This document shows positions 1,977 to 11,616 of a stretch of DNA of 32,000 bases, piece by piece. Under the pieces are notes generated by a model that saw nothing but the letters and a program-made list of their open reading frames with translations, was not told the DNA's origin and made no database searches. The DNA comes from Erysipelotrichaceae bacterium (GTDB taxonomy: Bacteria > Bacillota_I > Bacilli_A > Erysipelotrichales > Erysipelotrichaceae). Position 1 is the stretch's first letter. The number at the start of each line of letters is the position of its first letter. The position numbers and the translations under genes were made by a program. The stretch is from positions 1 through 32,000 of the forward strand of contig JAUVVC010000003.1 in the NCBI GenBank assembly GCA_030604855.1, in the 5' to 3' direction.

Positions 1977-3509
1977 ATGAAAGAATTTAAACTTAAAGAA
2001 CTTCAAAACTATCGCGGCACGGGAGAAAGACCAAAAGATTTTGATGATTTCTGGAACTTGCGTATAAAGATGTTGAATCAAGTCCCATTGGATGTGTCAA
2101 TTGTTCCTGCTCTAGACATTGAATTTGATCACTATATTGTTAGCTCGCTCTATTTTAGAAGCTTTGATGGTGCTCGCATTCATGCAAAGTACATCCGACC
2201 CAAGACAAACGAACCTGTCGCCTGCGTATTGCAGTTCCATGGATATCCAGGCAGTAGTCGGCCTTACTTTGAACATGCCTCTTTTGTGGAAGCAGGTATG
2301 GCTGTGATTGCGATGGATTGTCGTGGACAGGGTGGACTCAGTGAGGATGTAGGTGGAATACAGGGTACGACGGTTAGTGGTCATTTGATTGCAGGTTTAG
2401 ACGATACTTTGGAGAACATGCTTTATGTAAAGATTTATTCAGATGTCTATATCTTGTCTAGAATTGCCATGAGTTTAAGTGAGTTGAATCCGGAAATTGT
2501 ATATGTGAATGGTGCCTCGCAAGGTGCTGCTCTCGCGTGTGTTTGTGCCGCTTTGAATCCAAACATAAAGAAGGCTACACTGCTTTACCCTTTTTTAAGT
2601 GATTTTGAGCGTGTTTTTGATTTGGGTTTTGATGTGATTGCATATGAAGGTCTGCGCTATTATAGCCGTTGGTTTGATCCGGATGGACACAATCGCAAGC
2701 GGATGTTTGATCGATTGGCTTACATTGATGTACAAAATTTCGCTCCAAGAGTTCGAGCAGAAGTGCTGTTTGGAATCAGCATGGCAGATACCGTATGTCC
2801 AATCTCAACACAGTTTGCTGTTTACAACAATCTTTCGTGTAAGAAAAGTTTGCATCGATATCCAGGAAAAGGACATGAGCCGATTCATGCATTTGATGAT
2901 TTAATTCTTCCATTCTTTGGTAAACCAAGATTGAAATCAAGACAAGTTTATGATGATGATTTGATGCGTTGTCACCTGCTCGGTAATAAGAGTTCGAAGC
3001 TGATTATTCAATTTCAACCCAATATAACGTACGGAGAACACTATCTTAGACGCTATGTTGCGCTCGGATATGAAGTGTTGACGGTTGAGACAAATTTGGA
3101 AAAATACAAAAAATCGACTAAAAAGTTGATTATGCGTTTAACGGATCTGTTGGATTACGAAAACTATGAGAAGATCATTCTGATAGCGGAGGATATTCAA
3201 GTTAAAGCAGCTCTGCAAAGTGCAATCGCTCTGAGGGCTGTGCATGCGCTGATTTTTCAAACACCTGTAGGTTTGACATATAAAGAAGTCAATAACGCAG
3301 ATAAGATCAATGCGAATGTCGTGCTCGGATTAGGTGGATTGGATGAAGAGACTAACACAAGAATGAATCATGTATTTTTTGCAAACGTGGTCACAGAAAA
3401 ACAAATCATGGTTTATCCAAAATACGGACGCGAGAGGATCAATGCTTTTGAGGACTTGAAGCTTAGACTTCTTGAGTGTGAAAAGAATCAATTTGGTTCA
3501 AATAAATAA
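1977..3509 (+). CDS. CE7-family acetyl esterase (acetyl xylan esterase / cephalosporin-C deacetylase-like) with an extra C-terminal alpha/beta-like domain; probable sialate O-acetylesterase by context
   Basis: The N-terminal ~320 aa carry all three CE7 signatures: MDCRGQGG, GASQGAA (nucleophile elbow) and GKGHEP (catalytic His). SD AAAGGAG precedes the ATG. A further ~190 aa follow (see findings). Confidence 0.85.
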   Translation: MKEFKLKELQNYRGTGERPKDFDDFWNLRIKMLNQVPLDVSIVPALDIEFDHYIVSSLYFRSFDGARIHAKYIRPKTNEPVACVLQFHGYPGSSRPYFEHASFVEAGMAVIAMDCRGQGGLSEDVGGIQGTTVSGHLIAGLDDTLENMLYVKIYSDVYILSRIAMSLSELNPEIVYVNGASQGAALACVCAALNPNIKKATLLYPFLSDFERVFDLGFDVIAYEGLRYYSRWFDPDGHNRKRMFDRLAYIDVQNFAPRVRAEVLFGISMADTVCPISTQFAVYNNLSCKKSLHRYPGKGHEPIHAFDDLILPFFGKPRLKSRQVYDDDLMRCHLLGNKSSKLIIQFQPNITYGEHYLRRYVALGYEVLTVETNLEKYKKSTKKLIMRLTDLLDYENYEKIILIAEDIQVKAALQSAIALRAVHALIFQTPVGLTYKEVNNADKINANVVLGLGGLDEETNTRMNHVFFANVVTEKQIMVYPKYGRERINAFEDLKLRLLECEKNQFGSNK

Positions 3510-3526: not shown

Positions 3527-3540
3527 TGTAAGGGTTTACA
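3527..3540 (+). promoter_or_regulatory. cre-like (CcpA) palindrome overlapping the -35 of the ABC operon promoter
   Basis: TGTAAGGGTTTACA compared with the remembered cre consensus TGWAANCGNTNWCA: only the central C is mismatched, and the arms TGTAA/TTACA are palindromic. Confidence 0.3.
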
Positions 3541-3563
3541 GCTTAAACGTTTGATGCTATGAT
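3535..3563 (+). promoter_or_regulatory. Putative sigma-A promoter of the ABC importer operon
   Basis: TTTACA (3535-3540), 17-nt spacer, TATGAT (3558-3563), with an extended -10 TGc immediately upstream. Confidence 0.45.
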
Positions 3564-3673
3564 GATTGCAAATGGAGCAAAACGCCAAAAAATAGAAATA
3601 AAAGGGAGTTAAATTCCTATTATGTCTTATGCTTTGCTCACATTCCAGACCTTATCAGAAAGGGAGAAATGAA

Positions 3674-5275
3674 ATGAAGAGAATCGTATTGATCATTGCA
3701 TCGTTGGCTCTCGTTGTTGGCATGCTTACCGCATGTTCAAAACCAGCTGAACCAACAGAGCCTGAAGTTGTTTATACCAATCCTTTACAGGATGTACGCG
3801 TACGTCAAGCATTATGGTATGCGATCGACTGGGAAACCATTACAGATACTTTGTGGAACGGCAATGTAACGCCAGCACCAAAAAGCTTGGTTCCAGAAGG
3901 CGAATGGCAGGCGAGTGGATTGACGGACTACTCTTACAATCCAGAAAAAGCCAAAGAATTGCTTGAAGCTGCTAAATGGGATTCAGAATATGTATTGAAA
4001 GCGGTCTACTATACTGGAAATTTACTAGATTCCATCACAGCTATCCAAGCGTATTGGGCTGAAGTGGGTGTCAAAATGGAATTCCAATTATTGACAGACA
4101 ACTTGACCGTCCAATTATGGACACCTCCAGCAGACAAAGTCAATGGACCTTCTGAAGTGGATTGGGATATTGCGTTTGCAGGAACCAATGCCTTAACTTT
4201 AGGCGAGTATTACTTACGTTATCATTCAACTGCAGCCAACAACTCGACCATTCCTTATGATGCGGAATTGGATCGACTTGTGGAAGTCATCAAGACAGCT
4301 GTAACAACAGAAGATCAAAAAGCAGCATTCAACGCAATGCAAAAATATGTGAATGAAAAAGTTTATACCTTACCAATGTTCTACTTACCAAGTTGGATAG
4401 CGACAAGCGACAAATTGGATATGAAGGGCAATGAAGCAGGGAATGACCAATTCAGTTACACCAAGAATATCTTAGATTGGACAATCGCACGTGATGACAA
4501 AACCATGTATACCAATACGGGTGCCGTCAGTGCGCTTGAACATACCGCTACAAACCCAGGTTTATTCTGGCACCAAGAAATAGTATTCGATCGTTTGATC
4601 AATGCATCACCAGCACTCGTGCCAACAGATGGGTCCTTAGCAGAATCCTTTACGGTATCTGAAGATGGAAAATCCATTGAATTCGTAATCCGTAGTGGTG
4701 TTAAATGGCATGATGGTGTTGATTTCACAGCTGAAGATGTCAAATGGACACTTGAATACTATCCAACCATTCCTGGCGCAAATGCCTTGATGACCGGTGT
4801 ATTTGGTGATATCAAAGCCATCACAGTGGATGGAAACAAGCTTAATGTTGAGTTTAACAATGTACAACCAACAGCGCTTACCATCTTCTCACAATGGGCT
4901 ATCCTTCCAAAACATAAACTTGAAAAAGTAGATCCAGCCCTCTTCTCAGCAGATACCTTCTGGCAAAAGCCGATTGGTACAGGTCCGTTCAAAGTTCAAG
5001 AAGTGAAGCTTGGGCAACATACGATCCTAACTCGTAACAATGACTACTTCAAACCTGGTACTGGTAACATTGAAAAAATCTTTATGTATCCAAGCACTGA
5101 TCAAGGCGATCCAAACCTTGTGACCAACGCTTTGGCAGGAACCATTGACTATGCATTCGTCAAAGATGCTGCACAAGTCGAACAAATTCGTGCTTTGCCA
5201 AACTATACTGTTGATACAGTCAACGTAACGTTCACACGCTATGCCTTCATCAACATGTTTCCCCGCAAAGAATAA
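3674..5275 (+). CDS. ABC transporter substrate-binding lipoprotein, family 5 (Opp/Dpp type), with apparently permuted domain order
   Basis: Start at ATG 3674 (MKRIVLIIASLALVVGMLTAC, lipobox LTAC), with SD AGGGAG upstream. Family-5 motifs are present: DVRVRQALWYAID, YNPEKAKELLEAAKW, LAESFTVSEDGKSIEFVIRSGVKWHDG, PIGTGPFKV. Confidence 0.85.
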   Translation: MKRIVLIIASLALVVGMLTACSKPAEPTEPEVVYTNPLQDVRVRQALWYAIDWETITDTLWNGNVTPAPKSLVPEGEWQASGLTDYSYNPEKAKELLEAAKWDSEYVLKAVYYTGNLLDSITAIQAYWAEVGVKMEFQLLTDNLTVQLWTPPADKVNGPSEVDWDIAFAGTNALTLGEYYLRYHSTAANNSTIPYDAELDRLVEVIKTAVTTEDQKAAFNAMQKYVNEKVYTLPMFYLPSWIATSDKLDMKGNEAGNDQFSYTKNILDWTIARDDKTMYTNTGAVSALEHTATNPGLFWHQEIVFDRLINASPALVPTDGSLAESFTVSEDGKSIEFVIRSGVKWHDGVDFTAEDVKWTLEYYPTIPGANALMTGVFGDIKAITVDGNKLNVEFNNVQPTALTIFSQWAILPKHKLEKVDPALFSADTFWQKPIGTGPFKVQEVKLGQHTILTRNNDYFKPGTGNIEKIFMYPSTDQGDPNLVTNALAGTIDYAFVKDAAQVEQIRALPNYTVDTVNVTFTRYAFINMFPRKE

Positions 5276-5295
5276 GTAAATTGTAAAAGTTGAGA

Positions 5296-5323
5296 CAAAG
5301 CTGGCATAATATAGCCAGCTTTG
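5296..5323 (+). other. Intercistronic stem-loop between the SBP and first permease gene (no T-tract)
   Basis: Perfect 10-bp stem CAAAGCTGGC / GCCAGCTTTG with an 8-nt loop. No U-run follows, so it is more likely an mRNA-stabilising or partial attenuator hairpin than a full terminator. Confidence 0.5.
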
Positions 5324-5352
5324 CCTTGAATAGAATCCAATAGAGGTGTAAA

Positions 5353-6312
5353 ATGTTCAACTACATTGTTCGTAAACTATTAGGCATGATTCCGATGTTG
5401 CTCGTCATCACTTTTTTGATTTTCGTAGGCATTGAGATGATGCCAGGGGATGTCATTGATTTTCTGATTCCGATGGATGAGCTTGCACGCATGACACCTG
5501 ATGAAGTGAATCAAGTGCGTGAAGCGCTTGGGCTCAATCAACCGATGTTATTTCGATATTTCAGTTGGCTATGGGGGATTGTGCGAGGAGATCTTGGCTA
5601 CAGCATGCAGAACAGTGTTGCTGTAAGTAAGCTGCTGTTGGACCGATTACCCGCTACGCTTGAACTATCGATTGCAGCTCTATTGATTTCTACCTTCTTA
5701 GGAAGTTTCTTAGGTGTGATATCTGCGATTCGAAAAGGAAAAATTGCAGACAATGTTCTAAGCATGGCAGGTATGATCGGCGTCGCGATTCCGCAGTTCC
5801 TTTTTGGTCTTGTATGTATCCTTGTTTTTGGAATCTATCTGAAATGGTTGCCTGTTGGAGGACGTTTCTTACCCGGCAAAGAAGCATTTTTCGAGCGCTT
5901 GGAGTATTTGATTATGCCGGCGATGGTTTTGGGCATTTCAATGACAGCAGGTGTCATGCGTTATAGTCGAGCAAGTATGCTGGATTCGATGAATCGCGAT
6001 TATGTAAAAACAGCTCGAAGTAAAGGCTTATCCGAGTGGAAAGTCAACCTTTTTCATGGTTTGAGAGTTGCTTATACACCCGTCATGGTTTTGATTGGCT
6101 TTAGACTTCCCATGTTGATAGGCGGTTCTTTAGTCATCGAGCAAATCTTTCAATGGCCAGGTGTGGGGATACTGTTTACGGATGCAATCCGAAGTCAAAA
6201 CACACCCATCATCATGTCCGTTGGACTATTCATGGTTCTAATCGTCTTAGTTTCGAGTTTATTGGTAGATGTCTTAACAGCCGTATTGGATCCAAGGGTT
6301 AAATTATCATGA
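5353..6312 (+). CDS. ABC transporter permease (DppB/OppB-like)
   Basis: 319 aa and multi-TM. N-terminal MFNYIVRKLLGMIPMLLVITFLIF, plus an EAA-loop-like YVKTARSKGLSEWKV typical of the BPD_transp_1 Opp/Dpp permease family. Confidence 0.9.
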   Translation: MFNYIVRKLLGMIPMLLVITFLIFVGIEMMPGDVIDFLIPMDELARMTPDEVNQVREALGLNQPMLFRYFSWLWGIVRGDLGYSMQNSVAVSKLLLDRLPATLELSIAALLISTFLGSFLGVISAIRKGKIADNVLSMAGMIGVAIPQFLFGLVCILVFGIYLKWLPVGGRFLPGKEAFFERLEYLIMPAMVLGISMTAGVMRYSRASMLDSMNRDYVKTARSKGLSEWKVNLFHGLRVAYTPVMVLIGFRLPMLIGGSLVIEQIFQWPGVGILFTDAIRSQNTPIIMSVGLFMVLIVLVSSLLVDVLTAVLDPRVKLS

Positions 6313-7238
6313 GTAACACAATTCGTAAAACTGCCTTAGATCGCAAGATGGATCGATTGCTTGCATTAGAAGAACAAGGCCAACTAAAAACAAATCTAAA
6401 AAGTCGTGCATTTCGTAAGATACTAGCAAATAAACTTGCTGTTCTTGGCGTGGTCCTCTTTACCATCATTGTTTTATTAAGTGTGGCAGCACCACTGTTT
6501 ACTAAGTTTTCTTCAACACAACTTGATTTGAGAAGCATGCTCACCGCTCCAAATGAAACCCACCTCTTTGGAACGGATCAACTTGGTCGCGACATTTGGG
6601 CGCGCATGTTGTATGGAGGCCGTATTTCGATCCTTGTTGGTTTTGGAAGTGCGATTGGAGCAGCGCTGATCGGTGTCACACTCGGCATCTATGTAGGTTA
6701 CAAAGGAGGATGGTTGGATTCAATCATCTTGAAATTCTCCGAGATCTTCATGGCTTTTCCACAAATCATAATTATTTTGATCGTTATGGCGATCACAAAA
6801 GCGAGTCTAACCAACATCGTTGTCATCTTCATTTTGACAGGTTGGCCAAGCATGTATCGTATGACACGCTCGCAAATCCTATCCATCAAGGAACAAGACT
6901 ACATTCAAGCATTAAGAGCCTTTGGAATCGGTGATTTGAAAATCTGTTTTAAACACATGCTTCCCAATGCGATTGGTCCTATTTTTGTAAACATCACACT
7001 CTCTACAGCCATGTTCATCTTACAAGAATCTGCATTAAGTTACCTAGGTCTTGGTGTCCCACCGGAAGTAGCGACTTGGGGTAATATTCTCAATATCGTA
7101 AATGGTCGTTTTGACTACATTCAGCAGTATTGGTGGTTGTGGGTGCCAACAGGTGCGATGCTGACGATTTTCATTTTGGCAATCAACTTTATTGGCGATG
7201 GGCTTCGTGACGCGAGTGACCCAACGCAATTGGGTTAG
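6309..7238 (+). CDS. ABC transporter permease (DppC/OppC-like)
   Basis: 309 aa. HLFGTDQLGRDIWARMLYGGRISI is the typical OppC N-terminal motif. YIQALRAFGIGDLKICFKHMLPN is the EAA loop. ATGA start/stop overlap with the upstream permease. Confidence 0.9.
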   Translation: MSNTIRKTALDRKMDRLLALEEQGQLKTNLKSRAFRKILANKLAVLGVVLFTIIVLLSVAAPLFTKFSSTQLDLRSMLTAPNETHLFGTDQLGRDIWARMLYGGRISILVGFGSAIGAALIGVTLGIYVGYKGGWLDSIILKFSEIFMAFPQIIIILIVMAITKASLTNIVVIFILTGWPSMYRMTRSQILSIKEQDYIQALRAFGIGDLKICFKHMLPNAIGPIFVNITLSTAMFILQESALSYLGLGVPPEVATWGNILNIVNGRFDYIQQYWWLWVPTGAMLTIFILAINFIGDGLRDASDPTQLG

Positions 7239-7250
7239 GAGGAACAAAAC

Positions 7251-8264
7251 ATGATCAATGACATTGTAGTAAAGGTCAGAGACCTCCATGTGTATTTCTA
7301 TACGAACCAACGTTGCAATAAAGTTTTAAACGGGGTTAGTTTTGATATTAAAAAGGGAAAGACATTATGTGTCGTAGGAGAAAGTGGCTGTGGGAAATCC
7401 GTGACCGCAAACACGATCCTACAATTGCTCCCAGAACTTTCACGAATTGAAAAGGGGTCCATTGAATATCAGAAGGATGATCAACTCATTCGCATCGATC
7501 AGCTTCAGAAAAATGGAAAACAGATGCGTAAGCTTCGTGGCGAAGACATTGCCATCATATTCCAAGATCCGATGACGGCACTTAATCCTGTTTATACTGT
7601 CGGGCATCAAATTCGAGAGATGATTTTTGAACATATTCCAAATCTTAATAAAAAGCAGGCTTTTGAGCGTTCTGTTAAAAGCTTAGCTGAAATGGGGATT
7701 TCCGCTCCTGAACAACGTGATCGTGAATATCCACATCAGTTTTCGGGAGGCATGCGACAACGTGCGATGATTGCCATGGCGATGAGTTGTGCACCTAAAG
7801 TACTGATTGCGGATGAACCCACAACGGCACTAGACGTAACGATATCCGCTCAGATATTTGATCTGATTAATGAACTAAAAACCCAACATGAAACAGCCAT
7901 AATGTTGATAACACATAATATGGGTGTTGTTGCTGAGATGGCAGATGAAGTTGCGGTCATGTATATGGGGAATATCGTAGAATATGGAAAAGTAGAAGAT
8001 GTATTGACACAAGCTCGACATCCCTACACAAGAGCTCTCCTCAGATCAATACCTGTCTTAGGTAAAGGGAAGGATCAAGTGCTTGAGCCCGTTCGCGGTA
8101 TGACGCCAGATCCATTCAATCGTCCGAAAGGCTGTCAATTCTGCCCACGTTGTGATTTCGCGACTGAATTGTGCGAGAATAAGATGCCACCTGAAACGTT
8201 CATTGATGAGAACCATTATGTGCGTTGTTTCCATCATGAAGAGGTGATCAAACATGCAAAATAA
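7251..8264 (+). CDS. ABC transporter ATP-binding protein (DppD/OppD-like)
   Basis: Walker A GESGCGKS, signature FSGGMRQR, Walker [12 protein letters not shown]. Cys-rich C-terminal extension [15 protein letters not shown]. Confidence 0.9.
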
Positions 8265-9273
8265 ACCAGAAGTATTGTTAAGAATTCGAGGATCAAAAAC
8301 GCATTTTGCAATCAAAAAAGGTGTTTTAAAAAAGACTCAAGCCTTTGTCAAAGCAGTCGATGATGTCGATCTTGATGTTTATCGTGGGGAGACCCTTGGT
8401 ATCGTTGGTGAATCGGGTTGTGGAAAGACAACCTTTGGGAAATCAATCCTACAATTGATACCCATTACTGGCGGATCTTACGAATATGCATTTAAAGATG
8501 GAATCAAAGACTTAAGAACACTCAATAAGAAAGAGATTGACAACGCACGTTCAACGATTCAAATCGTTTTTCAAGATCCCTACTCATCACTCAATCCTGC
8601 AATGAGCATCTTTGATCAGCTCCAAGATCCACTCATCAAATTTGGCGTCAAAAATAAAAAAGAACGTGTTGATATCATTGGTAAGTTACTTGAGGATGTG
8701 AATCTACCACGTGAATACATGACACGTTATCCAAATGAGTTTTCAGGTGGACAACGGCAACGGATTGGAATTGCACGTGCACTTTCAGTTAATCCAGAAT
8801 TGATCATTTGTGATGAAGCGGTCTCTGCACTTGATGTATCCATTCAAGCTCAGGTTTTGAAATTGTTAAAGAAACTCAAAGATGAACATCAACTAACCTA
8901 TTTATTCATCACCCATGATTTATCAGTTGTGGAGTATATCGCAGATCGTGTTGCGGTCATGTATCTTGGTAAGATTGTAGAGCTTGCAAAAACAGAAGAT
9001 CTATTTGCGAATCCGCTTCACCCCTATACCAAGGCATTACTTTCAGCAATTCCGATTGCAGATTTAGCTCAAAAGAAAAAAAGGATTCCTCTACAAGGAG
9101 ATGTCCCATCACCAGTATATCCTCCTTCAGGATGTCCATTTCATCCAAGATGTCCTGAATGTATGGAAATCTGTAAGACACAAAAACCTGAATATCGCCG
9201 TTTTGAAGTCCATGGAAGTGAGCGTTATGCATCTTGTCACAAAATAGACTTGAGTGATGTTTCGAATAAGTAA
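8254..9273 (+). CDS. ABC transporter ATP-binding protein (DppF/OppF-like)
   Basis: Walker A GESGCGKT, signature FSGGQRQR, Walker [13 protein letters not shown]-terminal [15 protein letters not shown]. Overlaps the upstream ATPase gene by 11 nt. Confidence 0.9.
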
Positions 9274-9315: not shown

Positions 9316-9452
9316 AGGGGTTCAATAGCGACCTTATATATGCGTTTAAAGATTGTGTCAATGAAATGCCTTGCTTTCCTTTGAAATGAAAACATACACT
9401 TTTCAGTTCAAACTAAACGAGAAACAGTTCACATCGTTAAGGATTATGATTG

Positions 9453-9487
9453 TTGACACACTTTTGACATACATTGAGGGTTATAAT
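9453..9487 (+). promoter_or_regulatory. Tandem direct repeats TTGACAYAC x2 (11-bp register) plus a TATAAT box upstream of the response-regulator gene
   Basis: TTGACACAC at 9453 and TTGACATAC at 9464. TATAAT at 9482-9487, six nt before ATG 9494. Neither TTGACA sits at canonical -35 spacing (12 or 23 nt). Confidence 0.35.
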
Positions 9488-9493
9488 ACAGAC

Positions 9494-10189
9494 ATGAAAA
9501 CAAATCCTACGATCTTGATTGCGGATGACAATCCGCAAATCACATCGATCTTAAATAGTTATTGTAAGAAAGAAGGCTTTGAGACCGTTCTTGCCGTAGA
9601 TGGTTTTGATGTGCTCAATAAAATGTCCAGTGACATCGATCTTATTCTATTGGATGTGATGATGCCCAAACTGGATGGTTTTTCCGTATGCAAGGAAATC
9701 CGTAAAGATAACAACGTACCCATCATCATGATCACCGCTCGTGGTGAAGATCACGAGAAGATCTTGGGCTTGGACATCGGAGCGGATGATTACATCGTCA
9801 AACCGTTCTCACCGCTTGAAGTCATGGCCCGCATCAAAGCGGTCCTCAGACGTCTCGAACCCGAAAGCACAAAGCACATCTTGAATTTCGATAACCTCAT
9901 GGTGGATATGCGTGCCTATCGCGTAGAAATCAATGGACAAGAAGTGTCTTTGACACGAAAAGAGATTGAATTATTGTTTACCTTAGCCATGCATCCCAAT
10001 ATTGCATACTCCCGAGATCAACTCTTGAATCAAGTCTGGGGCTATGATTATTATGGTGACAGTCGAACGGTTGACTCTCACATGACTCGTTTGCGCAGTA
10101 AACTTGAACACTTCGATCATCCAGCTTGGGATTTAAAGACCGTCTGGGGCATCGGTTATAAATTTGAACCCCTTGAGGTAAAGCCGTGA
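9494..10189 (+). CDS. OmpR/PhoB-family response regulator
   Basis: Receiver motifs ILIADDNP, LLDVMMPKLDG, VKPF. Winged-helix output LTRKEIELLFTLAMHPN...RTVDSHMTRLRSKL. I start at MKTNPTILIADD (ATG 9494), not the TTG at 9371. Confidence 0.85.
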   Translation: MKTNPTILIADDNPQITSILNSYCKKEGFETVLAVDGFDVLNKMSSDIDLILLDVMMPKLDGFSVCKEIRKDNNVPIIMITARGEDHEKILGLDIGADDYIVKPFSPLEVMARIKAVLRRLEPESTKHILNFDNLMVDMRAYRVEINGQEVSLTRKEIELLFTLAMHPNIAYSRDQLLNQVWGYDYYGDSRTVDSHMTRLRSKLEHFDHPAWDLKTVWGIGYKFEPLEVKP

Positions 10190-11616
10190 AACAGGGCATC
10201 ACTCGCAAATTGATCCTCTATTTCATTCTGGTCATCATTGTCTTTGCCTTCATCATCGGAGGTCTTTTTGGCATTTCAGTGCGTCGAGCGACACGAACAG
10301 AAATCGAACAACTTCTTTTGAATCAATCCACAAAGATTGCGGACGCAATTGAAAACAACGATAAGTTGAGCATTGACCGGGCAGAACTGAACAGCCTGCT
10401 CAGTCGTATAAATGTGGATGATTTACAAGTCTGGATTGTCAGTCCAGAAGGTGCGATCACCACCATCACAGAAACCCGTATGGGCATGAACATGATGCGG
10501 GATTACTTTGCTTTAAGTAAAGGAACACAAGAACTGCTGGGGCAAGTCTTAGCAGGTGAACAACTTGTCAGTGATCGGATCCGTGGTGTCTTCAATACGG
10601 AAACCGTTACGGTGGGTACGCCGATTGAAGTCAATGGACAGGTGATTGCGGCTTTGTTTATATCTGCTTCTGTCACATCCATTAACGCTTTGACCTCAAG
10701 TACGATTCGGATCTTGGTTCTTTCGCTGGGGATTGGGATCATCTTTGCCATCCTATTGGGTTACTTCTTATCGTTAAAGTTCGTAAAACCGTTGAATCGA
10801 GCCAATGAAGCCATCAACAGCTTGGCATTGGGTGACTATGAAGTCTTCTTAGATGTAAAGCAAAAGGATGAAATCGGACAACTTTCCAACAACATCAACA
10901 GTTTAGCCAAGCGTTTGGATGATGCGTCCAAACAAAGTGCCAACTTAGAGAAAATGCGTCAGAACTTCATAGCGGACATCACGCATGAACTCAGAACACC
11001 GGTAACCATCATTCGTGGTTTGGCAGAGGGTGTCAAAGATCAGATCTATCCAATTGAAGACAGTCCTAAGATCAGTGCTCAGATCATTCATGAGACATTG
11101 GGAATGCAACGACTGATTCAAGATCTGTTGGATCTGTCCAAGTTGGAAGATCCAGACTTTAAGTTGGATAAGCATGTGATTGAGTTGCACGATGTTTTGG
11201 ATGATGTGGTTCGAAGTGCCCGTGCGCTTTTGGAGCAGAAGCAACAAACCCTGCAGGTTCAAATCGAAGCGGGTACATGGTCTTTTAGCGGAGATGCGCA
11301 ACGCTTGAAGCAGATGTTCATTGCGACCTTGGATAATGCATCCAAATTTTCACCAGAGAAATCAACAGTTGAACTTCTTGCAAGACAAGAAGGGGAAATG
11401 GTCATCATTGAAGTTGTGGACCATGGGATTGGGATGAATGAACTCAAGCAAAAGGAATTGTTTCAACGGTATAAGAAGGAAAGTCAAAACAATCCGAATG
11501 GAAATGGATTAGGTTTACTGATCGTGTCGAAGATTGCGGCCAACCATCATATCCGCTTAGAAGTGGAGAGCCAGTTGGATATCGGAACTACGATACGGTT
11601 TAAGATACCGCTTTGA
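10186..11616 (+). CDS. Sensor histidine kinase (two TM helices, extracytoplasmic domain, HAMP, HisKA, HATPase_c)
   Basis: GTG start overlapping the regulator stop (GTGA). TM helices LILYFILVIIVFAFIIGGLFGI and ILVLSLGIGIIFAILLGYFLSL. H-box ITHELRTPVT, N-box LDNASKFSP, G-boxes DHGIGM and GNGLGLLIV. Confidence 0.9.
   Translation: MKQGITRKLILYFILVIIVFAFIIGGLFGISVRRATRTEIEQLLLNQSTKIADAIENNDKLSIDRAELNSLLSRINVDDLQVWIVSPEGAITTITETRMGMNMMRDYFALSKGTQELLGQVLAGEQLVSDRIRGVFNTETVTVGTPIEVNGQVIAALFISASVTSINALTSSTIRILVLSLGIGIIFAILLGYFLSLKFVKPLNRANEAINSLALGDYEVFLDVKQKDEIGQLSNNINSLAKRLDDASKQSANLEKMRQNFIADITHELRTPVTIIRGLAEGVKDQIYPIEDSPKISAQIIHETLGMQRLIQDLLDLSKLEDPDFKLDKHVIELHDVLDDVVRSARALLEQKQQTLQVQIEAGTWSFSGDAQRLKQMFIATLDNASKFSPEKSTVELLARQEGEMVIIEVVDHGIGMNELKQKELFQRYKKESQNNPNGNGLGLLIVSKIAANHHIRLEVESQLDIGTTIRFKIPL

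Follow-up and report, generated by a model that had tools for sequence, protein, structure and literature searches.

Can a binding protein of the Opp/Dpp type start and end inside the lobe that usually forms the middle of its chain, and still work? The question is raised by a gene at positions 3674-5275 (+ strand) of a 32,000-nucleotide stretch of Erysipelotrichaceae bacterium DNA (GenBank assembly GCA_030604855.1, contig JAUVVC010000003.1, positions 1 to 32,000; hereafter the window), which encodes a substrate-binding protein (SBP) of family 5, also called cluster C. Binding proteins of ATP-binding cassette (ABC) importers are textbook models of hinge-bending ligand capture and the main scaffolds of biosensors, in which circular permutation is introduced by design. 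Canonical chains run from a signal peptide through lobe 1 (domains I and II), a first hinge segment, lobe 2 (domain III) and a second hinge segment to a short C-terminal lobe-1 piece. An earlier note, made from the sequence alone, had proposed that in the window protein these parts follow one another in swapped order, each present once in a chain of 533 residues. The comparisons reported below bear this out, and we conclude with hardly any reservation that the protein is a natural circular permutant of a cluster C SBP. The gene is divided as follows (all on the + strand).

3629-5275: SBP open reading frame (ORF); likely start ATG at 3674, product of 533 residues
3662-3666: Shine-Dalgarno GGGAG, 7 nt before the ATG at 3674, read from the sequence
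3674-3736: predicted lipoprotein signal peptide, residues 1-21, with lipobox L-T-A-C and Cys21, read from the sequence
3737-3775: flexible tether after the lipidated Cys, residues 22-34, ending VVYT; predicted local distance difference test score (pLDDT) <50 up to residue 29
3776-4489: residues 35-272, the canonical C-terminal part (lobe 2 or domain III lacking its first strand, then hinge segment 2 and the C-terminal piece of lobe 1); profile positions 318-548
4385-4399: equivalent of hinge segment 2 (lobe 2 to lobe 1), residues ~238-242, by approximate homology mapping to YejA
4490-4501: junction linker R-D-D-K between the old C-terminus (..ILDWTIA) and the old N-terminal strand (TMYTNTG), seen as the gap between the profile matches
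4502-5266: residues 277-531, the N-terminal part of the canonical chain (strand 1 of domain I, domain II, the remainder of domain I, hinge segment 1 and the first lobe-2 strand); profile positions 51-315
5222-5239: equivalent of hinge segment 1 (lobe 1 to lobe 2), residues 517-522 (NVTFTR), from the YejA alignment
5234-5275: last beta-strand TRYAFIN (lobe 2; strand 521-526 by DSSP of the model), then MFPRKE as the new C-terminal tail, and the stop codon; point of the cut relative to the canonical chain

The coordinates and peptide strings given for this gene in the earlier note all proved correct. The SBP begins MKRIVLIIASLALVVGMLTAC, with the Cys codon of the LTAC lipobox at 3734-3736, and ends in TFTRYAFINMFPRKE. 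Motifs that mark the two halves start at 3779 (NPLQDVRVRQA), 4502 (TMYTNTG), 4631 (GSLAESF) and 4970 (PIGTGPF). The signal peptide and lipobox expected of an exported family-5 SBP can be read from the sequence.

Swapped order was seen with each kind of reference. The Pfam model SBP_bac_5 (PF00496) matched at 203 bits (gathering cut-off 32.4, E 9e-60) in two stretches, the better one placing protein residues 321-528 on model positions 5-208. Among NCBIfam models, DppA matched protein residues 34-136 with model positions 300-408 and Opp4A matched residues 304-526 with positions 66-293. A phmmer search of PDB sequences aligned residues 303-470 with 42-219 of 8upi and residues 36-142 with 281-387 of the same chain; 8efz and 4oet likewise gave two swapped stretches, and E. 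coli DppA (1dpe) gave two stretches, the best of which joined residues 34-136 to chain residues 272-380.

Full-length resolution came from a custom hidden Markov model (HMM) of 549 positions built from 46 canonical relatives. Residues 35-272 of the window protein matched positions 318-548 (E 2e-67) and residues 277-531 matched positions 51-315 (E 1e-78); in addition residues 1-30, the signal peptide region, matched positions 1-31 weakly. As a control, two held-out canonical proteins each gave one collinear match over positions 1-548. Partial matches with swapped model coordinates, which the earlier note had named as the check to be made, were thus obtained with Pfam and then with the full-length model. 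Alignment to the closest canonical protein, P0126 (567 residues), gave the same picture residue by residue: 38-272 of the window protein align with 333-567, the last residue of P0126 (46% identity, E 7e-62), and 270-533 with 50-327 (35% identity, E 8e-51). Only the five residues 328-332 of P0126 are unaccounted for at the cut, and RDDK (residues 273-276) forms the new joint. P0126 itself aligns with DppA across the cut site in a single stretch. In no comparison did the window protein follow the canonical collinear order (domain I, II, I, hinge, III, hinge, I, with the termini in domain I).

The structural comparison was made with an AlphaFold2 model computed from 28 sequences (pLDDT 79.3, predicted template modelling score, pTM, 0.78). 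At the junction, 10-residue blocks have a mean pLDDT of 74 (residues 261-270) and 96 (residues 271-280). In a Foldseek search of the PDB the model found only cluster C SBPs (NikZ, AccA, AppA, OppA, CtaP and others), over 227-304 aligned columns or about half of the chain, with TM scores of 0.28-0.41. The model of canonical P0126, used as a control, matched the same PDB entries over 523-591 columns with TM scores of ~0.7-0.85. No solved structure with the permuted cluster C order was found in this search of the PDB, where alignments covered about half of the chain at most. Once the window model is circularly shifted, 496 of its residues align with P0126 at 41% identity and with 87% DSSP agreement. 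The permuted form also carries a warning: annotation that depends on domain order, and structure searches that align sequentially, split permuted SBPs or score them too low.

Where exactly has the chain been opened? The new termini had been placed at the hinge between domains I and III, and in this respect the proposal has to be corrected. In the crystal structure of YejA, lobe 1 consists of residues 1-286 and 540-579 and lobe 2 of residues 287-539, with hinge segments at 282-287 and 540-542 (PMC10924461). For hinge mapping, the E. coli yejA sequence was aligned to the canonical profile. Hinge 282-287 of YejA (SAQDTR) lies directly before RWLAFN, which aligns with RYAFIN in the TRYAFIN strand of the window protein (residues 521-527), and PVFSDRRVREA of YejA aligns with NPLQDVRVRQA. 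The second YejA hinge, 540-542 (EDR in LPMWYMAEDRLAWW), was matched by eye with LPMFYLPSWIATS in the window protein. The cut therefore lies one strand past hinge segment 1 (residues 517-522), inside lobe 2. In canonical relatives this first lobe-2 strand runs on, through a loop of 7-9 residues, into NPLSD or ALAD..RVRQA; it is this loop, between the first strand and the first helix of lobe 2, that on the homology mapping is open, and both hinge crossings are kept. Loss of one hinge strand, which would leave a single crossing between the lobes, was considered and rejected, the SAQDTR hinge of YejA mapping to residues 517-522, one strand before the cut.

By the same mapping, lobe 1 becomes contiguous (residues ~243-516), lobe 2 becomes discontinuous (35-239 plus 522-531), and both termini, together with the lipid tether, are moved from lobe 1 to lobe 2. 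A linker of four residues suffices because the canonical ends lie close together in domain I. As a natural and abundant variant of the largest SBP class, the permuted form shows where the cluster C fold tolerates new termini.

We next describe how widely the permuted order is shared, a point on which the earlier note had advised a protein search. Of three protein searches, each taken to its 120 best matches, one was made with the window protein and one with the protein P0123. Among the matches listed, at least 120 full-length homologs of the window SBP (64-95% identity, 524-592 residues) were found; homologs in general have a signal peptide followed by NPL(Q/S)D, and all 27 representatives (<85% pairwise identity) have the signal peptide and then NPLQDVRVRQA. 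Mean column identity is 75% among 28 sequences at that same pairwise limit. Twenty-six species-representative genomes (Oscillospiraceae, Faecousia and metagenome-assembled genomes, MAGs, of Clostridia, from human, mouse, goat, buffalo and rumen) are collinear with the window protein, and the permuted order occurs in >230 protein clusters from NCBI, ENA, JGI and Logan. A HMMER scan of all 50%-identity representatives recovered the full-length permuted clusters P0109, P0122, P0123, P0127 and P0136 plus fragments spanning the junction; among the 150 best such representatives, 13 span the junction and 107 are canonical.

The search with P0123 brought out a second, wider permuted group, in which 119 of the 119 other listed proteins are permuted. 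Carriers include Sphaerochaeta pleomorpha Grapes (UniProt G8QVP0), Bacillus sp. 1P02SD, Dethiosulfatibacter aminovorans, Spirochaeta isovalerica, Breznakiella homolactica, Acidaminobacter, Clostridium sediminicola and candidate division KSB3, so that several phyla are represented. Finished genomes of cultured strains, such as that of S. pleomorpha (CP003155), carry the permuted form. Public names of the P0123-like proteins are generic only ('ABC transporter substrate-binding protein', 'family 5'). Motifs are preserved in permuted proteins across 34-95% identity, and judging from this conservation the permuted SBP is very probably a working protein.

Three kinds of known system can be set beside the window protein. 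Canonical cluster C SBPs (E. coli DppA, OppA, NikA and YejA, C. jejuni NikZ, L. monocytogenes CtaP) are homologous to it over the whole mature chain. They have in common with it the motifs WHDG, PIGTGPF and RVRQA, a signal peptide or lipobox, Opp-type permeases and oligo_HPY ATPases and, after circular shift, the same predicted secondary structure. They differ in having their termini in lobe 1, those of the window protein being placed in lobe 2 by homology, and in their ligand, a peptide or nickel complex as against what is likely to be sialic acid here.

The nearest relatives are canonical SBPs of Clostridia encoded in nan (sialic-acid catabolism) loci: the P0126 group (Anaerotruncus, Hungatella hathewayi, Pseudoflavonifractor), P0128 and P0129. 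They are 36-46% identical per half to the window protein and 43-60% identical to one of the two permuted clades described below (clade B). Their operons are of the same type, with sialic-acid neighbours that include AXE1 esterases; the difference is their collinear chain order. Such natural pairs of permuted and canonical proteins (36-60% identity), with homologous permeases, lend themselves ideally to studies of the influence of chain connectivity and tether placement on opening, closing and docking.

A binding protein that is circularly permuted by nature has already been described in Treponema pallidum: TpMglB-2 (Tp0684), a cluster B lipoprotein that binds glucose and gave rise to the proposed label 'Cluster Bc' (PMC4990184). 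Like the window protein it is a natural permutant and a lipoprotein with both termini in one lobe, and it founds a family in spirochaetes and Gram-positives. Its fold, however, is that of cluster B (type I), a fourth hinge crossing has been added and the relocated part shows little sequence similarity (13%; PMC4990184), whereas the window protein belongs to cluster C, keeps its number of crossings and is 35-46% identical to canonical relatives in both halves. The N-lobe strand order 5-4-6-1-2-3 and the fourth crossing that define 'Cluster Bc' would be absent from it, judging from its cluster C family and the YejA mapping. No description of a permuted Opp/Dpp or cluster C SBP was found in the open-access papers searched, which, together with the PDB structures, agrees with the earlier note, whose author was not aware of a described natural case. 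What appears to be new here is a real, functional-looking and widespread permuted cluster C family with close canonical counterparts, which seems to have arisen more than once.

Taken as a whole, we hold with good confidence that the gene encodes a working lipoprotein of an Opp/Dpp-type importer whose cluster C chain is naturally circularly permuted. The old ends would have been joined by RDDK and the chain opened in lobe 2 between the first beta-strand and the first helix, and the product would still be a Venus flytrap handing its ligand to the two permeases. A plausible origin, by analogy, is that an SBP gene was duplicated in tandem, that the two genes were fused in frame, and that the first N-part and the last C-part were then lost. 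P0157, of 1016 residues, has two complete family-5 SBP copies head to tail behind one signal peptide, and its residues 280-777 are collinear with the whole permuted protein (26% identity, different lineage). It can be regarded, by analogy and though from an unrelated lineage, as a living example of the intermediate that the duplication model needs. Among the points against this account are that the canonical-like packing of the two halves is predicted from a pTM of 0.78 and from homology, and that no fused double SBP was found within the family among the 120 best matches of each search (maximum 612 residues).

How many times has the chain order changed? In a tree of de-permuted sequences, permuted and nan-linked canonical SBPs form one group with 100% support, and they share a 10-residue insertion relative to the outgroup sequences shown. 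The window protein falls in clade A (gut Oscillospiraceae, Clostridia and Bacilli MAGs). Clade B (Bacillota, Spirochaetota and candidate division KSB3) is much wider and nearer to the canonical proteins than clade A is. Neighbour joining (NJ), done with three distance corrections, gave a single permuted clade a support of 2% with the 487 SBP columns and of 0% with the 1263 concatenated permease and ATPase columns. Maximum likelihood (ML) used the SBP and its four transporter partners. The best tree under nearest-neighbour interchange (NNI) is a ladder: outgroup and P0128, clade A (window, P0122), clade B, and then P0129, Hungatella and the crown canonical group. Forcing A and B together costs a log-likelihood difference (dlnL) of 34.4 (standard error, SE, 12.2, z 2.8; resampling of estimated log-likelihoods, RELL, 0.002), and the tree so constrained is NNI-optimal in its own right. 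With the distant outgroup removed, (A,P0128)|(B,canonical) is preferred over (A,B)|(P0128,canonical) by 47.8 lnL units (SE 12.9, z 3.7, RELL <=0.002). All six partitions (TMD stands for transmembrane domain and NBD for nucleotide-binding domain) point one way, against permuted monophyly.

TMD1: dlnL 14.4
TMD2: dlnL 3.6
NBD1: dlnL 5.4
NBD2: dlnL 6.1
SBP N-part: dlnL 12.9
SBP C-part: dlnL 5.4

Each side of the split has one permuted and one canonical lineage, which requires at least two changes of chain order; from these sequence trees we regard at least two independent or reversible changes as fairly probable. The layout of the operon (ABC genes, then a DHDPS-family gene) was also tried as a discriminator of origins and proved useless, being common to clades A and B and to the basal canonical lineages.

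The strongest competing explanation is a single permutation event, the separation of A and B being a long-branch artefact that draws clade A to P0128 and the outgroup. The two clades share both the opened loop and the position of the joint, as one event would have it. Clade A and canonical P0128 do have longer branches, so that long-branch attraction could fake their pairing, and our ML is approximate: a home-made implementation (BLOSUM62-derived reversible model, empirical frequencies, four gamma classes with alpha 0.8, NNI) applied to 14-15 taxa with one distant outgroup operon, the sole full-operon outgroup. Both circumstances count against more than one change. Opposed to a single event are the likelihood differences, with and without the outgroup, the agreement of the partitions and the near-zero NJ support. 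The junction linkers differ too, clade A having 4 residues (R[DEA]DK) and clade B 7 ([PA]D..G[KE][KRQ]). On balance we consider a single event possible, if doubtful.

An early permutation followed by re-permutation, which restored the canonical order in the lineage of Hungatella, Anaerotruncus and P0129, is in our view unlikely. On the best ML ladder one gain and one reversal cost two steps, as do two gains, and duplication and trimming is a symmetric mechanism. The crown canonical loop at the cut ([KN][AK]DG[TS]P..), however, is like those of outgroup SBPs (GADGKP, KEGTEGG and others), which is what a loop never opened should show, and two gains are favoured by a nearly equal topology (dlnL 1.2) in which A and P0128 are sisters. 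Since all other relatives are canonical, the linkers are clade-specific and the crown loop is outgroup-like, two openings of the same loop are favoured over gain and reversal.

We give an even chance to the fuller statement that, in a lineage serving an undescribed family of sialic-acid ABC importers, opening of one and the same lobe-2 loop, with fusion of the native termini, took place on two or more independent occasions (clades A and B), or else that the loop was opened once and re-closed later. If true, the cluster C fold has a preferred, evolutionarily reusable permutation site, and nature provides matched receptors sharing transporter partners for studies of Venus-flytrap dynamics and docking.

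The cargo of the importer is suggested by the genes that surround it in the window.

134-835, - strand: nanE (PF04131; NCBIfam 285 bits, cut-off 189)
891-1850, - strand: NanA-like lyase gene (DHDPS family; best NCBIfam match N-acetylneuraminate lyase)
1977-3509, + strand: AXE1-family esterase (AXE1 over residues 4-309) fused to a degenerate second AXE1 copy
5353-6312 and 6309-7238, + strand: two Opp/Dpp-type permease genes (Pfam BPD_transp_1 with BPD_transp_1_N, OppC_N)
7251-8264 and 8254-9273, + strand: two ATPase genes with an oligo_HPY C-terminal domain (Pfam ABC_tran plus oligo_HPY)

The Opp/Dpp-type permeases and two oligo_HPY ATPases of the window are kept in the 24 related loci whose contigs continue beyond the SBP gene. 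In these clade-A loci (24 of 26) the SBP gene is followed by two permease genes and then, where the contig reaches, by ATPase genes; the other 2 contigs end after the SBP gene. A homolog of the window lyase (57-67% identical) comes next in 16 loci, in 6 others a DHDPS match is found upstream, and 6 loci have NanE upstream. Clade-B loci read SBP-TMD-TMD-NBD-NBD-DHDPS and contain NanE, an ROK kinase, a BNR sialidase and a GlcNAc 2-epimerase, as well as NagA, NagB, DUF386 and regulators of the RpiR or GntR type. Most homologous loci have a DHDPS gene before or after the transporter. The locus is of the same type in canonical relatives (Anaerotruncus, Hungatella, P0126, P0128, P0129), here also with AXE1 esterases, a GFO_IDH_MocA oxidoreductase, a flavoprotein and a sialidase.

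From the operon and its linkage to nan genes across permuted and canonical loci, the cargo is probably sialic acid and not a peptide. The ligand would be of the sialic-acid type (N-acetylneuraminic acid, Neu5Ac, or an O-acetylated or anhydro form), an assignment from gene context that we favour with moderate confidence. Telling against it, the NanA-like lyase scores 267 bits, just below the NCBIfam NanA cut-off of 281, and the cargo could be a sialylated oligosaccharide or something else, given that family-5 SBPs usually bind oligomers.

We think it improbable that the cargo is peptides or a metal chelate, as in most systems of the Opp, Dpp and Nik kinds, with the nan genes nearby by coincidence. 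The best NCBIfam and PDB sequence matches of the SBP are indeed Opp4A, NikA/NikZ and DppA, but all lie far below the family cut-offs. Linkage to a NanA-like lyase is kept across two permuted clades and their canonical sisters (Bacillota, Spirochaetota, KSB3), often with NanE, NanK, a sialidase, NagA/B and RpiR/GntR regulators in addition. There is also a precedent, the family-5 SBP SatA, which binds Neu5Ac (PMC8461474, PMC10017367).

SatA (structures 5YYB, 5Z99 and 5ZA4) belongs to SatABCD (ST3), the known ABC transporter with a family-5 SBP that serves sialic acid uptake in Haemophilus ducreyi and Actinobacteria. It resembles the window system in combining a family-5 SBP and an ABC importer in a nan cluster. 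SatA is, however, canonical in order (residues 304-476 of the window protein align with chain residues 33-199) and distant: HdSatA (5yyb, E 1e-9) ranks behind ~50 other PDB sequences including NikZ, DppA and CtaP. It is not among the 27 PDB matches to P0126 at E<=1e-10. SatC is a permease-ATPase fusion, so that three transporter genes accompany the SBP gene in that system, whereas the two permease and two ATPase genes of the window are all separate. Filing the window system under ST3 was consequently rejected, on weak SatA similarity (by search E-values) and different gene architecture. Severi et al. (2021) report a single origin of sialic acid SBPs in SBP_bac_5, and the taxa of the window family go unmentioned there. 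Their catalogue comprises eight families of sialic-acid transporters, and a 2023 review counts three sialic-acid ABC families. The uncharacterised family-5 importers described here, linked to sialic-acid catabolism in gut Clostridia, Bacilli and spirochaetes, would add to the eight.

We give practically no credence to the idea that the gene is a product of faulty assembly or binning, or that it is a pseudogene or recent rearrangement confined to the window contig: the window is probably of metagenomic origin and the junction (4490-4501) is just four codons, but the explanation is refuted by conservation across the 26 species-level genomes, the hundreds of contigs and the finished genomes that carry the same order and operon, and the ORF is intact, with its Shine-Dalgarno, lipobox, operon and motifs preserved, so that the functional gene argued for in the earlier note stands.

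Two candidate regulatory elements flank the SBP gene.

3535-3563, + strand: promoter-like site TTTACA, 17 nt, TG-TATGAT (consensus scan, 10/12 matches, extended -10 TG)
5290-5329, + strand: hairpin between the SBP gene and the first permease gene (-20.8 kcal/mol, z -3.8; 0/200 shuffles fold as well)

The first is a consensus match only, the count of such sites not exceeding that in shuffles. The hairpin has a perfect 10-bp stem, extended to 15 pairs, and no T-run, for which reason it is probably an mRNA stabiliser or attenuator and not a full terminator. Its role is probably the customary one of increasing SBP mRNA over that of the membrane components.

Several further features of the SBP were observed. 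The window subclade has a deletion of ~16 residues in domain II (LEYY----PTIPGAN, residues ~362-368) relative to all other permuted and canonical members, and one of 2 residues in the lobe-2 segment (YYTGN--LLD, residues ~112-118) relative to all other family members; these two deletions mark it as a derived branch. Just before NPLQD stands EPEVVYTN (VVYTN, residues 32-36, 3767-3781), which is similar both to EGEKVLYTN at the mature N-terminus of canonical proteins and to KTMYTN at the internal junction. This stretch could, as a faint hint, be a scar of the in-frame deletion that removed the first N-half after duplication; VVYTN occurs in part of clade A only and, at 3-5 residues, is too short to test.

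The esterase gene at 1977-3509 also merits a comment. Its C-terminal 201 residues match AXE1 weakly (E 0.001), and loci of canonical relatives have two adjacent AXE1 genes, the first 51-52% identical to the window esterase; the impression is of a fused gene whose second copy has decayed. Its product is a candidate sialate O-acetylesterase. The Anaerotruncus, Hungatella and P0126 loci consistently contain an FAD_binding_2 flavoprotein (fumarate-reductase-like) and GFO_IDH_MocA, with two AXE1 genes in 3 of 4 and a large sialidase in one. These extra genes of the canonical nan loci suggest an uncharacterised route for a modified sialic acid, for example an anhydro or O-acetylated form. In the P0129 locus (L036, 12723-13740) no gene is called at the position of the first ATPase; an ORF there is 64% identical to NBD1 over 318 residues, and the gap is probably one of gene calling or a frameshift.

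Directly after the ATPase genes of the window (9371-11616, + strand) come an OmpR-type response regulator and a HAMP/HisKA histidine kinase, a pair not seen directly after the ATPase genes in the other nan-linked loci with listed genes; it may be a local regulator of the operon. Further on, between 12553 and 23493, the window encodes a phosphotransferase system (PTS) EIIA, a galactitol/ascorbate-type EIIC, a PfkB kinase, class II aldolases, a PRD-containing regulator, a GntR/UTRA regulator and a mannose-family PTS (IIB, IIC, IID), a set of sugar genes consistent with a host-glycan foraging island.

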